A stretch of DNA of 63,490 bases, filler included, from Collodictyon triciliatum (Eukaryota), in NCBI GenBank assembly GCA_043381765.1. It is 6 parts of 6 records of this genome, joined end to end, with 100 filler letters (N's around TTAATTAATTAA, not from the genome) between each part and the next. Parts side by side here need not be neighbours in the genome. Positions count along the whole stretch, not along the records: positions 51,285 to 59,623 come from JBHJMP010001373.1; 5 more parts are not named here. The stretch is one strand, 5' to 3'. Shown piece after piece: positions 51,584 to 57,601 of the stretch. The notes beneath the pieces were generated by a model, which saw nothing but the letters and a program-made list of their open reading frames with translations, did no database searches and was not told where the DNA came from. Position 1 is the stretch's first letter. The number at the start of each line of letters is the position of its first letter. A program made the translations under genes and the position numbers.

Positions 51584-53105
51584 GGATTTTTTACGAAGAT
51601 TTTTGCCTCAAGTGGATATTCTTTATCAAGGCAAGTGCCCTTTTGATTGCAACCTTTAAAGTGTATTATAATTTTCTTTTTGTTAAAGTTTTATGACAAA
51701 TGTTGACCCACTTACTATCACATCAACAGAGAGCAAGTGACGAAACTCAAAAAAGAAAGTTGCTGTCATTGACAAGAACTTTATTTGGTCTTTTAAGAAA
51801 ATCTATGGGTCTGCGAGCATCTGAGTCGCAATTTATTACATTAACTTCGAAGACTCGTTCAGATGCGACCAAGTTCACTGCCATAGACGTTTTTTGTGAT
51901 AAAGAGGCCGACGGTTTCTATGAAAAAAAGGAATTAAATTCTAATCCTTTTAGTCAGAGATGTATAAACTCATTAATTGCGTTACTGAGTTGTTTATCGT
52001 CTTTCCTCGCTAAGGATGAATTTTTGGAGCCTCAAGAGAAAATTGTAATACAAATATGATTTCATATATATATTATTAAAAAAAAAGATATTTTTTTTCA
52101 TGGTTAAACTAGTTTGTAATCCTTTCCTCCTTTTAAAAAATAAATATATAGCGTCATTGAGATTTGAACACCTTTATAAAAATTTTTTTATTTCTTAATA
52201 GGAATTGAACGAGTCGATATGTCAATTTATTCAAGATATGTTTATCATTTTGGACTCATCAACAGCATTTTTCGTTTATGAATATTATTATTTGGAAAAT
52301 GCAAATAACCCGACATATATTCTTGAGCTTATTCGGATTTTGGCAGAATCTCCTGCCTATTCTCTCCTCAATTTACCATGCTCAGTCCCGACATTTACAA
52401 CGCTTCTGGCCCAAGGAGGAAATTTTTTATCAAAAACAGAGGGTATTAAACTATTCTCACCCAAAAATATATTATTTGTGGGATCTAATCAAATCCATCA
52501 TAACCGCTTTTATTCTTTTTTTTTCTTTATTCGATTCAAAGTATAACCGCTCTTATTCTATTATAGAGGGTCTAAGTAAGGATGTTCCAGCATTGATCAT
52601 TATTGATGAATTGAAAAAAGCGTTAGAGCTTCCTGACCCTTCCTCTTACAAGAAGCAATTAAGTATGTATTGAACATTTTTGTTTCTTTTGCAAATAAAA
52701 AAGCTATCTGCCATAACCAAATGGTTTCAAAATGGCTAAACCTATTCTGCGGAAGTCAAATATTTCAATTAAAACAATATCTTTTTCTTTTTCCTTATTC
52801 CTAATAGTTGGAATTTTAAAGTCTCTTCTCACAAAACATGATTATGACTCCGATTATCAAAATCGGGACACGAAAGCCCAACTTGCTAAGAAATACAGTC
52901 AACTGTTAACGATATATAACATTCCTGAAGACAAAGATGATAGGCTAACCTATGTATACTGTGTCCTGTGGGTCATGAAAAGTATGTCCCCCAACGACTT
53001 GAAGGAAGCTCTTATGGTGAAATTTTACTTTCCTTTTTCAAATTGCCAACAATAAACATATTTCTATCCCTGCCTCGTAATTTACTGGACGAATTCTCTC
53101 TCTCT

Positions 53106-53183
<78 letters not shown>

Positions 53184-56100
53184 GTTATTCTTTCTTTAAA
53201 TTTTGTGTGAACAAACGAATGCTTACCAATAATTATCCACGCTTTTGCAGATGTCTTTGTCATCGTTGAATCAAATGAGATTGTTTTTCTCTTTGATACA
53301 ATCATGCGCACTTTCACTCTCCTCGATCTCAGAAAATCATGACCAAAGAGAGAATGATAGGAGTTTTCAAAGGCCCTTAACCCGAGCTCAATCCCGGGAA
53401 ACGATGCACAAAAAAGAAACAGAAATGAGCCCAGCTGCCTCTGTTTCAGCGATGAGATCATCGAATCGCTTTTCTGGCCAGAACATGGGTCCAAATATTC
53501 TTGTTATTGAATCGGCATTAACACTGTTGAAGATAATTCTTATTTTTCTCAAAGACGTGGCTCCAAAAACAAAACTCCCCTTTGTAAACAATATCATGGA
53601 CATCCTCCTTGCAATTATGCAACTTGAAAAGAACCCTAAAATAACCAGCCTGGCTACAAGTTGCTGGCAGGCGTTGGTTCCTTACTATTTTGAGGATTTA
53701 TTCAAAAAGTATCCAGCTTGAAAAAATCATCAATTTATTGTTTTAAATACTATATTTTGTTCAATTGTTTTTATTTAAAAAATCAATCAATATGATTTTA
53801 TACACCGATTTTTATCATGGTCATGAGAGGATGTTTCCAATAAGCTTATGTAATCTCATAAACAGAGTCAGAGGTCAGGAAAAATTAAAACAGAGTGCCG
53901 TGGAAATTCTTCGGATATGCTGCCATCCTAGCCCATCTATTCGCTCAAAAGGAATCGGCTTGTTATATTTAATATCACAGCAAAACCATAGATATATGGG
54001 TTCGACAAGGGTGTTTAGTGATGCATGGTAAAAATTTTGCAGTATACAATCTCATTGTATGGTAGTTTTTGAAGTAATTTTACGTCAACGCTTTAATGCT
54101 GTTTGGGTGAGGGGAATTTCCCCTCTTCCTTTTTCTTTTTCTTTTTCTTTTTCTTTTTCTTTTTCTTTTTCTTTTTCTTTTTCTTTTTCTTTTTCTTTTT
54201 CTTTTTTCTTTTTCTTTTTTCTTTTTCTTTAAAATTTTACGTCGTTTACATTTCCTATATCTCCTATGTACTATATCTTATTCTTTTTTTTCCATTTAAT
54301 AACCTCTATTCAATAGTCATTTATATTATTACTTAGCAAAGGAGCTCTTCTTCAGCACATTTTCGTCGAAAATATGAAGAATTATCAAATGATGGAGGTA
54401 ACTATCGCGAGCGCCATTCGGTACTTATGTAGCCAAATCGTTTCCAGCTCAGAAAAGAAAGAGGTTATTTTATTTACATATTCCGTTGTGAAAAATTCTT
54501 CCATATTATGTATTCCGTTTAAGTTTACAACGCACACTACTTTAATTTTTTTTTTAAAAAAAAAAGAGTAATAATTATGAAATCATAATAGATAACTGAT
54601 TCTATGATTTTACTTTTTCTGGGACTGCAAGAAATCGTTGGAAAAGTCTATATCATTACAAAATATACTATATAGTATCATTTTTAGATAAAAAAATTGA
54701 AGAGAAATGAGCCAATTTCTTTTTCTTAATTTTCTTTAAGGCATCCGAACTTGAAAAGACCACCTCCTCCATGACTGATTCTGCATCTATTATTGTAAAA
54801 TATCACCGATTCTATTTGGATTGCTATGAAAAATACCCTGAGCTTGATCTGTCCTGGTTAGTTTATTTATGAAAGTATTTCGAAGCCTCCTCATATGCAT
54901 GATTGACCAAACCCTTACTAACATTTGCTTTATTTGAACCCAGGATGGAAAGCTATGTATTGAATCAATACAATCCATCCAAACGCTTCTCTCGACCGGC
55001 TCTGTCCCCGGTTTCTGATAGAAGTACTTTTCGCAAACTCAACTATGCCGAGCTCATCCGGTTAGGATTCCGTTTAATGTTGAAGCATGAAATGGGAAAG
55101 TCGCGGCATATACGACCTGCACCTACCGTTGAGCAAACCATAGCTATTGGCGGGACTCCGACTAACGAACAGTCGCGTGTTCCTCAGAAGGATAATTCGG
55201 GTCAGCAGGCTTTTAAAAGTGAGCCTGTCGCGCGAGTAGATGCATTTAGTCCAAGTGATAATCGAACAGAGATCCCTCAGGCACATCATTCAAATCACGA
55301 AAGCTTGTCAACAGCCCTCCCTAAAATATCGCCAGTCACGGATGGTGTTGACTTGGACGGCCTCGATTGGACTCCGTCATTGGCACTGAACGACCCGTCT
55401 TCAGCAGATCCAAACTTTCACTTTAAAGTGTACTATGCATCTCCATTCCAGGCTCTGCGAGAGGCCTGGGGATATAACAAGAGCGAGTTTATCCTGTCAA
55501 TGTGTGCTTCAAAATATTTAAAGGAATGGAAGAATCCAGGTAACTATTTGGTTTGATTAACACACGCCTTCATCCCAATATATAATAGTAATTTTCGTAC
55601 ACATTTTGCAACGTAATGATGAAATAAAAAGGTGGGAAAAGTGGAAGTCTTATGATGATATCGTCTGATAATCGGTTGGTGGTGAAGTCAATGTCCACTG
55701 ATGAGAGCCACTTGCTACGCGAGATTATAAGAGATTACGTCAAAGTAATGTTGTATCCATTTTCGATATATATTCGGCTCACCAGATATACAAACGGGAT
55801 TCAAATAGAGCAAAGTCAGCAACCCCCAAAATATCGACTTAAACTTATCGTATTTTTTATTTTATTTTTTATTAGCATATGTTGGAGAACCCTAATACGT
55901 TAATTATCCGGATACTTGGAATTTTCAGTCTTAAATCTGTGCCGCACCAACGAATCCACTTTGTCATCATGGAAAATGTCATGCCGCCTAAACTTCAACT
56001 TACTGAAAAGTACTGAAGAAATTGTCTTCTTATCAAATGATTTGGTGGTGGCGTTCAAAGTTTCATAAAATTTTAAGATAATTTATTTGATTCTGCCGAT

Positions 56101-57601
56101 ACACCATAGGTATGATTTGAAAGGTTCAAGGGTTGGAAGATTAACTAATCCGATTGAAGAACACGGAACAATCCCTGTTTTAAAGGTTGTTTTTGTTTTT
56201 GTTTTTGTTTTTGTTTTTGTTTTTGTTTTTGTTTTTGTTTTTGTTCCTTTTGATTAACTTGATTGGATAAAATGGTATTTTTTGTTTTAGCGTATTTTAA
56301 TCGATTCATCCCTCTCTTTTATGACCAGTAATCATTTCAGCAGACTTATACCTCACATGATTATACTAATAAATCTTCCTTTATGTTATTTCAATATGAA
56401 TCAAGTATCAAATTTACGATATCTATTTGCTGTTGCTTTGAAATTTAGGATATGAACGTGAAAGAAAAATTTTTCTTCGGACCCGATATGAGAGAAAGCT
56501 TTCTCCAACAATTAGATGCAGATACAAAGGTAACCTGAATACCACATATACCTGGTTTTTTTTGAATAAACATCGGTATGATTTTCTTAAAAATAAGGAA
56601 ATATTTTAGTTTCTTCAGCAGTTCCAGATCATCGATTACAGTTTGCTGTTGGGGATTCACAGGATTGTTGTAGACGAAGCTCAGTCAGACGCACATGGAG
56701 GAGGTCATTTGGACACAAGTTATCTTCAAAGTAAATTTTGCAATTGAAAAATGCCACCAACTATTTTTTAAAATTTCACGAGTATATATATATATATAAA
56801 GAGGAAAAATTAAAAATAATTAATTGGTTGTATTGACCAGTATCCAAACTCATTCTTTTCTCATTCTGCAATAGCAACAACATGCAGCCAAAAGTTTGTT
56901 GATTCGTTCATTTCGGGAGGAATCCCGCGATAACTTTCAAAAAAAATTATGAAGATTTCAAGCTTTATTCCCACGCGTGATTGCTCTCAACTAATCAGTA
57001 ATTGTAATTATTTTCTCTTTGCCTACATAAACACCCAATAGGTATAATGGCAAAGGGGATATGTCTGTCTTTCGATTTTATGAGGGAGGCTTTGTCAGCC
57101 CCATTATTCGGAAAACTGATATCGGACACATGTCTTCATCCCAATTACCTGATGGGAAAGATCATCTGCATGTCACATCCTATGTGAATGTTTATTACGC
57201 AGGAATCATCGATATTTTGCAGCAATATAACTTCAAAAAACAAATGGAATTGAACCTAAAAGGCCTTATATATGAGAAGGTATTATATTATTCCTTTTTG
57301 TTGAGCATTCCATAAGCAAATAACATATTTGCATTATAGCTGAAATATTAGCATTTACAATTGTAAAAATCGTTTCTGGTTTACGAATAGCTTCTTTAGT
57401 AATTCGATATCGCACTAAATATCGAAATAGTAATGAAGGTTTAACGGAATTTGTATGTTCGGTATATCGGGAACTAAAATGATTTTAACCCATAATCCTG
57501 CCTTTGTTTAAATATCAACCATCCAGGATGAGTTGTCAGTGCAAGACCCAATGACGTACAGACTCCGTTTCTTGAAATTCATGGAGGAGTTTACAGAATA
57601 A
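51584..57601 (+). CDS. DOCK-C/D-like helical scaffold fused to a phosphatidylinositol-phosphate kinase (PIP5K) domain; 5'-truncated
   Basis: DOCK-like motifs: LFGLLRKSMG, LKSLLTKHDYDSDYQ...KAQLAKKY, EILRICC..SIRSKGIGLLYLISQQN, YEKYPELDLSWMES. PIPK motifs: FKVY....FQALRE, GGKSGS, LVVK, FVIMENV, YDLKGS, LKD, IDYSLLLGIH, GIIDILQQY, DPMTYRLRF. TAA at 57599-57601. Confidence 0.8.

Follow-up and report, generated by a model that had tools for sequence, protein, structure and literature searches.

Fab1/PIKfyve, the type III PIPK, has a large multi-domain N-terminus, holding FYVE, chaperonin-like and CCR domains, before its C-terminal PIPK domain. The DOCK (CZH) family consists of Rho-GEFs whose dimer interface is lobe A of the DHR-2 domain. 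In the GPCR-PIPKs (type IV), including Dictyostelium RpkA and the oomycete GKs, a signalling module was described N-terminal to the PIPK domain (PMC5784254, PMC3206951). A description of the DOCK helical region combined with a PIPK could not be found, and the main text of PMC5784254 does not contain the word "dock" (0 occurrences). Here, a window of 63,490 nucleotides from Collodictyon triciliatum was analysed. One spliced gene on its contig 51285-59623 quite probably encodes a chimeric lipid kinase, in which a DOCK scaffold carries a PIPK in the place of the GEF domain.

Removal of 17 introns, all GT..AG and 80-309 nt long, from positions 51700-57601 (+) of the window gives a single 1090-aa frame in the splice model, whose sole stop is the terminal TAA (Table 1). 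An earlier note on this DNA had the exons in one frame, and in this it was right; its junction EKKE|ASELE (54463/54741), in contrast, was not borne out, as the contig of record 2 of run X1 passes there through a micro-exon (54461>54590, cut +2, and 54645>54741), with both joints GT..AG and the frame kept. Skipping of this micro-exon would likewise preserve the frame. Spliced X1 contigs display 9 of the 17 introns directly and imply a tenth. One of them connects exons 6-7-8-9 and another exons 11-16; the junction DA-C|KGALL (54027/54337) is in frame and was seen in a spliced contig, and record 4 runs into a loose end of A's (poly-A) after 57706. X1 also revealed an additional small exon, exon 16, in the variable insert of the kinase, whose 3' end is 56893 or 56905 with one open frame either way, and the boundary of exons 10 and 11 was corrected to 55539/55632. 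By arithmetic, the 155 letters between the flanking pieces in X1 record 3 equal exon 13 plus exon 14. The frame and most splice junctions of the gene are established.

Table 1. Features of the DOCK-PIPK gene model (positions along the window; aa, residues of the model).
Feature	Position	Strand	Content and evidence
Exon 1	51700..52044	+	aa 1-115; 5' limit uncertain; donor GT at 52045; DOCK-like from ~aa 18, where the hhalign alignment to the DOCK profile starts
Exon 2	52202..52442	+	aa 116-196; DOCK inter-DHR region
Exon 3	52567..52662	+	aa 196-228; GT..AG both sides, in frame, within hhalign alignment
Exon 4	52808..53016	+	aa 228-297; strongest DOCK signature (HD.D..Y ... LY; CVLWV.K)
Exon 5	53251..53708	+	aa 298-450; Ser-rich low-complexity stretch, then helices; part of segment C
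Exon 6	53866..54027	+	aa 450-504; DOCK-like (..ILRICCHPSPSIRSKGIGLLYL..); X1 joints both sides
Exon 7	54337..54463	+	aa 504-546; X1 record 2 joins 54027>54337, 54463>54592
Exon 8	54592..54645	+	18-codon (54-nt) in-frame micro-exon; X1 record 2
Exon 9	54741..54856	+	aa 565-603; ends ...CYEKYPELDLS-W; X1 record 2 covers 54741-54856
Intron 9	54857..54943	+	87 nt; DOCK/PIPK junction intron; GTTAGT...CAG
Exon 10	54944..55539	+	aa 603-802; DOCK motif end (MESYVL), S/T/P-rich linker, PIPK start
Exon 11	55632..55744	+	G-loop GGKSGS, VVK lysine; PF01504 E 1.5e-8, profile 14-50; X1 joint 55744>55876
Exon 12	55876..56009	+	PIPK core; PF01504 E 7.3e-11, profile 51-96; X1 joints both sides
Exon 13	56110..56185	+	YDLKGS; PF01504 profile 96-112
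Exon 14	56449..56529	+	PF01504 profile 122-151; X1 joint 56527>56608 (cut +2)
Exon 15	56610..56730	+	IIDYSLLLGIH; PF01504 E 7e-6, profile 152-181; X1 joints 56529>56610, 56730>56875
Exon 16	56875..56905	+	small exon in kinase variable insert; X1 joint 56730>56875, 20 letters' cover
Exon 17	57042..57279	+	GIIDIL, activation loop QQYNFKKQMELNLKGL; PF01504 E 8e-8, profile 225-264; X1 joint 57277>57525 (cut +2)
Exon 18	57527..57601	+	stop TAA 57599-57601; PF01504 profile 268-287
3' UTR	to ~57706	+	X1 record 4

At the 5' end, the gene start formerly placed at 51584 falls in a frame closed by a TGA at 51694-51696; the open frame begins at 51697, and its first ATG stands at 51700. Exon 1 may instead begin at 51730, continuing a gene from upstream: an ATG at 51693 is out of frame, and a pyrimidine-rich tract precedes an AG at 51728-29. 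The contig starts ~400 bases upstream of the gene model, and upstream exons presumably exist. What had been taken for a gap to be closed proved to be a linker, N44-TTAATTAATTAA-N44, at 51185-51284; it recurs five times in the window and probably joins unrelated contigs, and the sequence before 51185 is therefore uninformative on the DOCK/PIPK gene.

For the part of DOCK that separates DHR-1 from DHR-2, Pfam offers no model, and exon-wise searches are nearly blind there; for this reason, DOCK profiles were built from 21 DOCK loci fetched from metagenomes. All 21 loci fetched by a DOCK motif were DOCK genes, and DHR-2 lobes were present in four of the six long ORFs tested, three of these four also having DOCK-C2. 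The N-terminal 620 aa scored 58.1 bits against an 18-locus profile (maximum 4.6; 0 of 1000 shuffles reached the score) and the N-terminal 603 aa 40.9 bits against a 7-ORF profile (maximum of 2000 shuffles 5.5; reversed sequence -2.2), shuffles being a lenient null for helical repeat proteins. Against the 18-locus profile, three non-overlapping segments, aa 1-227 (11.5 bits, maximum 4.2), exon 4 (24.9 bits, maximum 3.8) and segment C (16.5 bits, maximum 5.2; 1000 shuffles each), sit at the collinear positions 443-547, 616-700 and 783-900, and the PIPK half gave no match. With hhalign, the N-terminal half was paired with DOCK at 96.7 % (E 3.2e-10 over 480 columns) and, using a richer profile, at 97.9 % (E 3.3e-13), collinear with the stretch lying between DHR-1 and DHR-2; the profiles derive from genes chosen by one motif, and the E-values are those of a single comparison. 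When the 2717 ORFs of the window were ranked against the DOCK profile, the top three were exon 4 (E 1.3e-6), exon 6 (E 0.025, hmm 866-898) and exon 2 (E 0.052, hmm 475-547). Exon 4 by itself reached 95.3 % (E 2e-8) in hhalign, and aa 110-185 matched the DOCK locus L017 by tblastn (E 3.9e-5); aa 495-590 alone had no significant DOCK similarity in the profile tests. The 58.1-bit score, the better hhalign result and the three collinear segments place at least 600 N-terminal residues, as judged by profile comparison, in homology with the DOCK helical region between DHR-1 and DHR-2, bearing out the earlier claim of a DOCK-like N-terminal half.

It is scarcely credible that this half extends the PIPK with generic ARM/HEAT-like helices and resembles DOCK by chance. 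No Pfam family falls on any N-terminal exon, but Pfam is equally silent on the interval from C2 to lobe A of genuine DOCK ORFs, and its silence is therefore uninformative. Exon-wise phmmer searches of the PDB found DOCK for only one of the six N-terminal exons, namely exon 4, whose top match was DOCK6 (9vm2_A, E 0.44, two collinear stretches, 1146-1178 and 1257-1273); true PIPK exons, however, also miss PIPK structures by phmmer. Although exon 4 has unrelated look-alikes in the Atlas, three independent segments gave strongly positive, collinear profile tests, and this explanation is already largely refuted.

Mis-assembly or rearrangement could also have left a DOCK remnant beside a PIPK gene, as an assembly chimera or a decaying pseudogene rather than one protein, which is very unlikely. 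The assembly is fragmentary, with 12 N-runs across the 63-kb window, yet no N occurs between 51285 and 58134, and an independent DNA contig of the metagenome run X2 covers 54906-55056 with no differences. The 5' part of DOCK is missing and no search found an orthologue with the DOCK-PIPK architecture, whereas nine DOCK-like exons are stop-free in one frame over 603 codons and exons 5-9 are spliced in X1 contigs (for exon 5, a contig unbroken over 53267-53616 and the joint 53708>53866).

The second half of the protein matched the Pfam PIP5K family (PF01504) with 7 of 16 exon pieces, in collinear order and with E 7e-11 to 0.05, covering profile positions 14-287 of 288; three pieces alone exceeded the 27-bit cut-off (34.7, 42.3 and 32.3 bits). 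These matches assign it to the PIPK family with a complete catalytic domain, as had been claimed. The catalytic motifs read from the translations are GGKSGS (55632-55648), VVK (Lys at 55685-87), IIDYSLLLGIH (56628-56660) and GIIDIL (Asp at 57211-13). The G-loop GxSGS, the Lys of IIK, DYSLL and the IID residues presumably have their catalytic roles in this kinase, and the domain is apparently active. The activation loop contains, within KKQMELNLK, a Glu (57247-49) that may, as the earlier note held, be the type I Glu, the KK and Glu of the loop aligning without gaps with type I KKLEH. Type I alpha PIP5K was the sole solved PIPK matched by exons 10 and 11, if weakly (E 0.5-0.9): residues 150-199 of the exon 10 query paired with residues 51-99 of zebrafish PIP5K1A (E 0.8), and exon 11 with four distinct type I alpha sequences (E 0.54-0.58). 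The kinase would thus be type-I-like, and its substrate specificity is predicted on the same grounds.

The earlier note had also recognised a DHR-2-start motif at the end of the DOCK-like half. YEKYPELDLSW|MES is located at 54822-54856 plus 54944-54953, and the best match of a profile of the motif in the whole protein is indeed aa 592-606; the terminal YPELDLSW, however, is weak when taken alone (0.3 bits, equalled by 46 of 3000 shuffles; hhalign P 0.056-0.085, below the best of 30 shuffles). In the hhalign alignment, aa 592-609 pair with DOCK GYQTSPDLRLTWLENMA (L011 1216-1233), which lies 8-25 residues into Pfam lobe A, starting at 1208 in L011, and the match to lobe A is confined to its first ~18 residues. 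Lobes A (PF06920), B (PF20422) and C (PF20421) of DHR-2 were absent from all 16 exon pieces, and nothing appeared at DOCK profile positions 980-1403 among the 2717 window ORFs; as a control, the same Pfam models gave E 1e-21 to 1e-55 on four fetched DOCK ORFs, except lobe B of L002 with only 3.9e-6. By these alignments, the DOCK homology ends within the first ~25 residues of lobe A, and some 30-40 residues after the motif a complete PIPK domain follows, which agrees with the proposed replacement of the GEF domain. The reuse of a DOCK dimerisation module, also proposed, is unlikely, as lobe A is not retained. DHR-1 (DOCK-C2, PF14429) was found in the window neither by Pfam on the exon pieces nor by the DOCK profile against window ORFs, and the DOCK alignment starts at a profile position well past C2. 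DHR-1 may lie in unassembled upstream sequence, and because none was found, the scaffold may be a mere DOCK fragment.

The motif straddles intron 9, and its alignment continues into exon 10, which supports the splice of exon 9 to exon 10; the DOCK alignment ends in exon 10 (aa 609), the same exon that holds the PIPK N-terminal strand region, and S/T/P/Q/N/G make up a fraction of 0.42 of aa 604-760. This continuation argues against two adjacent genes, a truncated DOCK-like one ending after exon 9 (...DLSWLVYL*) and a separate PIPK starting from the ATG at 54945. Such an arrangement is unlikely, even though retention of intron 9 would give a stop after five codons (WLVYL*), exon 10 opens with an ATG one base past the acceptor and none of the spliced contigs bridges the junction 54856/54944. 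Just ~70 bases would separate stop and start, too few to accommodate a promoter and a 3' UTR; intron 9 has GT..AG ends and resembles the other 16 introns in length, with TACTAAC as its branch site 22 nt from the acceptor; and no activity is known for a DOCK that breaks off at the first turn of DHR-2. Splicing of exon 9 to exon 10, with W|MESY in frame in the splice model, is therefore predicted from the splice signals, the frame and the six-residue continuation of the DOCK motif.

A single gene would encode the DOCK inter-DHR helical region, then a short S/T/P-rich linker and a type-I-like PIPK replacing the GEF domain, with the DHR-1 C2 domain probably encoded upstream of the contig end. The kinase is expected to make PI(4,5)P2 from PI4P, and the DOCK-derived scaffold may position or regulate it at those membrane sites at which DOCK proteins usually act, so that the output of the scaffold would be lipid and not GTP-loaded Rac/Cdc42. 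Whether this amounts to a "Rosetta-stone" protein that is functional, in which a PI4P 5-kinase has taken the place of the Rac/Cdc42-GEF domain behind the membrane-targeting, regulatory half of DOCK, is evenly balanced. If so, signals that elsewhere run DOCK -> Rac -> PIP5K -> PI(4,5)P2 would pass from the DOCK scaffold straight to lipid synthesis, the N-terminal half of DOCK would be an autonomous, portable signalling module, and the PIPKs would gain, beside types I-IV, a fifth class by architecture.

Compared with the DOCK family, for which the best solved match was human DOCK6 (PDB 9vm2) and the best profile that of the metagenomic genes L011, L018 and L019, the inter-DHR helical region is homologous and collinear over ~480 columns with 23 % identity. 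The model and the fetched ORFs have in common the F..D....D region, ..LNLP, HD.D..Y...LY, C.LWV.K and LL..C.S....RS.....LYL. In contrast to DOCK proteins, the model has no DHR-2 lobes A, B and C, and thus neither a GEF domain nor the dimer interface of lobe A, the opening motif being all that remains of lobe A. As in type I PIP5K (PIP5K1A; PDB 4tz7, 5e3s), the PF01504 domain is full, but ~640 residues of DOCK-like sequence and linker precede it, and a longer insert separates its N-terminal helix from the first strands. A large N-terminus ahead of a C-terminal PIPK is shared with Fab1/PIKfyve; Pfam found no FYVE, chaperonin-like or CCR domains on the exon pieces of the model, and PIKfyve was absent from the PDB matches of exons 10 and 11. 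Pfam likewise gave no 7TM family on the exon pieces, and the part preceding the kinase has a DOCK-like, soluble character, whereas in GPCR-PIPKs, as described in PMC5784254, the N-terminal module is not a DOCK scaffold but a 7TM receptor carrying an LRxGI motif. What the model shares with the GPCR-PIPKs is the N-terminal fusion to a PIPK of a signalling module whose usual place is upstream of phosphoinositide synthesis (PMC5784254, PMC3206951).

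The proposed gene was modelled from stop-to-stop frames and GT..AG sites as 18 exons, which run from an ATG at 51700 to a TAA at 57599-57601 (+ strand) and encode a product of 1090 aa with no internal stops. All 17 introns have GT..AG borders, with lengths of 80-309 nt. Exons 1-9 form the DOCK-like half, and exons 10-18 encode a linker and the PIP5-kinase. In Pfam, seven of 16 exon pieces matched PIP5K (PF01504) in order, spanning 14-287 of the 288 profile positions, and three pass the family cut-off singly; this bears out the complete PIPK catalytic domain proposed in the earlier note. 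The kinase motifs GGKSGS, VVK, IIDYSLLLGIH and GIIDIL are present, and the activation loop reads QQYNFKKQMELNLKGL, with a Glu that may be the type I specificity residue. When exons 10 and 11 were compared with solved structures, type I alpha PIP5K was the sole match, a weak one (E 0.5-0.9).

Exon-wise searches revealed little of the DOCK-like half. Its nine pieces matched no Pfam family, and phmmer searches of the PDB with exons 1, 2, 5, 6 and 9 singly gave no DOCK at E <= 10; exon 4 matched DOCK6 (E 0.44) in two collinear stretches, 1146-1178 and 1257-1273. These blanks carry little weight, because the genuine PIPK exons 17 and 12 likewise miss every PIPK structure, showing that phmmer is too weak for single exons, and because Pfam is also blank in genuine DOCK proteins between DOCK-C2 and DHR-2 lobe A, a stretch of ~850 residues with no model in the Pfam copy used. 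No relative of this gene was found by word-based searches with exons 5, 10 and 17 ('longer' lengths; proteins up to 2000 aa; no match at thresholds) or by HMMER with exon 4, and when metagenomes were scanned with exon 5, none of the 131 pattern matches was confirmed. The full HMMER search with exon 4 gave two matches, one to an Ig V-set array and one to an unknown repeat; both targets are repeat proteins, and the matches were rejected as spurious. Atlas look-alikes of the same exon (top score 0.81) belonged to unrelated families.

To obtain reference sequences, the motif D.RY-(6)-A[RQ][IV]A.LY.P[LF], taken from the DOCK6 alignment of exon 4, was turned into a degenerate pattern and searched for in metagenome contigs. 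The scan returned 21 loci, all with the motif in an open frame, and yielded 21 DOCK genes with no false matches. Every locus held further collinear DOCK-like ORF pieces, 117 in total, a count reached partly by construction since the profile used came from seven of the same ORFs. Among six long ORFs, Pfam identified DOCK-C2 together with DHR-2 lobes A, B and C in three and the three lobes only in one, while the two covering only the middle region matched no family. At three of the loci (L011, L018 and L019) the gene is a single intron-less ORF, 1575-1773 aa long. The kinase half found nothing significant in the 21 loci by tblastn (best E 0.052); these loci are ordinary DOCKs.

The window sequence does not match the scan pattern, so a test with the resulting DOCK profiles is not circular. 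Against the spliced N-terminal 603 aa, the seven-ORF profile scored 40.9 bits (best of 2000 shuffles, 5.5; reversed sequence, -2.2), and hhalign paired model aa 80-609 with L011 583-1233 (96.7 %, E 3.2e-10, 480 columns, 23 % identity). A richer profile of 18 rows, one merged row per locus, gave 58.1 bits, a score reached by none of 1000 shuffles, and an hhalign match over aa 18-495 (97.9 %, E 3.3e-13), which upholds the DOCK-like nature of the N-terminal half. With this profile, each of three non-overlapping N-terminal segments exceeded all 1000 of its own shuffles (see table), and the kinase half had no match. In the profile DOCK-C2 lies at 59-234 and lobe A at 980-1127, so that all matches of the gene fall in the inter-DHR helical region. 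The top three of 2717 ORFs from the whole window were exons 4, 6 and 2 of the gene, and none of the 2717 matched C2 or DHR-2.

Segments of the predicted protein matching the 18-row DOCK profile, and features of the window
Feature	Position	Strand	Bits	Maximum of 1000 shuffles	Profile positions	Remark
N-terminal segment	aa 1-227		11.5	4.2	443-547	
N-terminal segment	aa 228-297		24.9	3.8	616-700	
N-terminal segment	aa 298-620		16.5	5.2	783-900	
Intron 9	54857-54943	+				GTTAGT...CAG; TACTAAC 22 nt upstream of acceptor
Microsatellite	53103-53182					
Microsatellite	54128-54230					
Microsatellite	56186-56245					
Contig carrying the gene	51285-59623					
Gap in this contig	58135-58464					330 N
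Linker N44-TTAATTAATTAA-N44	18537-18636					stops in all frames
Linker, identical	37168-37267					stops in all frames
Linker, identical	51185-51284					stops in all frames
Linker, identical	59624-59723					stops in all frames
Linker, identical	62127-62226					stops in all frames
Leishmanolysin frame	14483-15937	-				484 aa
Frame with zinc-ribbon-like end	17377-18060	-				227 aa
G+C-rich tract	19600-26000					G+C 57-59 %
Two intron-less frames	37269-49675	+				1685 and 2481 aa

Splicing was assessed with sequencing runs whose contigs match the window. One run (X1) is tagged 'RNA?' as a guess; GT..AG introns are skipped in its contigs, which run into poly-A after 57706, and on these grounds it was taken as cDNA-derived. 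Nine of the 17 introns are shown directly and a tenth is implied by length arithmetic; exons 6-7-8-9 are joined in one contig (53952...54856) and exons 11-16 in another (55653...56894). These contigs placed an in-frame micro-exon of 18 codons (54592-54645) within what the earlier note had drawn as a direct 54463/54741 junction, and revealed a small exon beginning at 56875, in the variable insert of the kinase, that was absent from its model. X1 lacks cover at 54857-55652 and, but for a brief match at the 52508-52543 repeat, at 51285-53266, and thus neither shows nor contradicts introns 1-4, 9 and 10 or the DOCK/PIPK junction. One contig ends exactly at 54856, at most a hint and from a single study. 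A joint in metagenome DNA (X2), 55873>56783 (AG..AG, side 20), probably stems from a repeat or another organism, and matches of runs X3 and X4 are confined to low-complexity stretches. In introns 4, 6 and 13 the read contigs break at long microsatellites of poly-T, (CTTTTT)n and (GTTTTT)n.

The end of DOCK similarity lies close to the junction. The hhalign alignment ends at model aa 609, where CYEKYPELDLSWMESYVL is paired with GYQTSPDLRLTWLENMAN (L011 1216-1233), 8-25 residues into the Pfam lobe A envelope, which starts at 1208. This terminal stretch had been read as the motif that opens DHR-2. The motif is weak alone (0.3 bits with a 46-column motif profile, with 46 of 3000 shuffles scoring as well; hhalign P 0.056-0.085), yet in both motif-profile and hhalign tests no other part of the protein matches better than this collinear spot. 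Residues 495-590 by themselves show no significant DOCK likeness. Intron 9 interrupts the motif, splitting its W codon TG|G, and past the motif exon 10 encodes an S/T/P-rich stretch and then the start of the PIPK domain. Were intron 9 retained, translation would end five codons on, and its acceptor is directly followed by an ATG, as might be expected of two neighbouring genes instead of one fusion; such genes, however, would have merely ~70 bases between them and would leave a functionless DOCK fragment, which makes this arrangement improbable in our judgement and favours the fusion.

The evidence comes from one organism, and the 5' end of the gene is truncated. A start at 51584, as formerly proposed, is precluded by a TGA at 51694-96 that closes the frame. 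Nor is 51700 likely to be the true start, given an ATG out of frame at 51693. Because of this ATG, and because the alignment begins only at about aa 18, exons further upstream may encode a DHR-1 C2 domain. The window holds 12 N-runs, ten of which make up five identical linkers, and looks like several contigs strung together at these points; what precedes 51185 need not be a neighbour of the gene. The DNA is eukaryotic, with G+C mostly 33-44 %, and an Rfam search of the whole window gave no match. Elsewhere in it, one open frame matches leishmanolysin (Peptidase_M8, PF01457) in full (E 1.9e-47). Two huge, nearly abutting frames are Glu/Lys-rich, with coiled-coil character and strong purine skew, and matched no Pfam family. 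A smaller frame, with nothing in Pfam at E <= 0.001, has the C-terminal end ...VDEFRTSKMCCNCEKELG, which presumably resembles the zinc-ribbon end of TnpB/Fanzor-type transposon nucleases. In the G+C-rich tract, long frames overlap on both strands and dipeptide-repeat microsatellites occur; a contaminant contig or another genome compartment may be its source.

In the predicted protein, the type-I-like PIPK would produce PI(4,5)P2, and the DOCK-derived helical scaffold would target or regulate the kinase, which would replace the GEF domain. Lobe A is the dimer interface of DOCKs; in its absence, the protein could dimerise only through the kinase. The fusion would let the role of the poorly understood inter-DHR region be probed without DHR-2, be it targeting, autoinhibition or partner binding.

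No report of a DOCK-PIPK fusion was found in the abstracts of the literature searched, and a survey of PIPK architectures, arranged as types I-IV, does not mention DOCK in its main text (PMC5784254). A new N-terminal partner would join the short list of these architectures. Annotation that relies on Pfam would label the protein simply as a PIP5K, since the DOCK region in question lacks a model in the Pfam copy used, and similar chimeras may for this reason hide in other proteomes. We rate the gene as a new combination of two known families, DOCK and PIPK. DOCK GEFs and type I PIP5Ks share pathways, in which DOCK activates Rac and Rac recruits PIP5K, and PI(4,5)P2 and PIP3 act back on DOCK via DHR-1; a natural swap of the GEF domain for a kinase would be genetic evidence for a functional link between DOCK and PIP5K.
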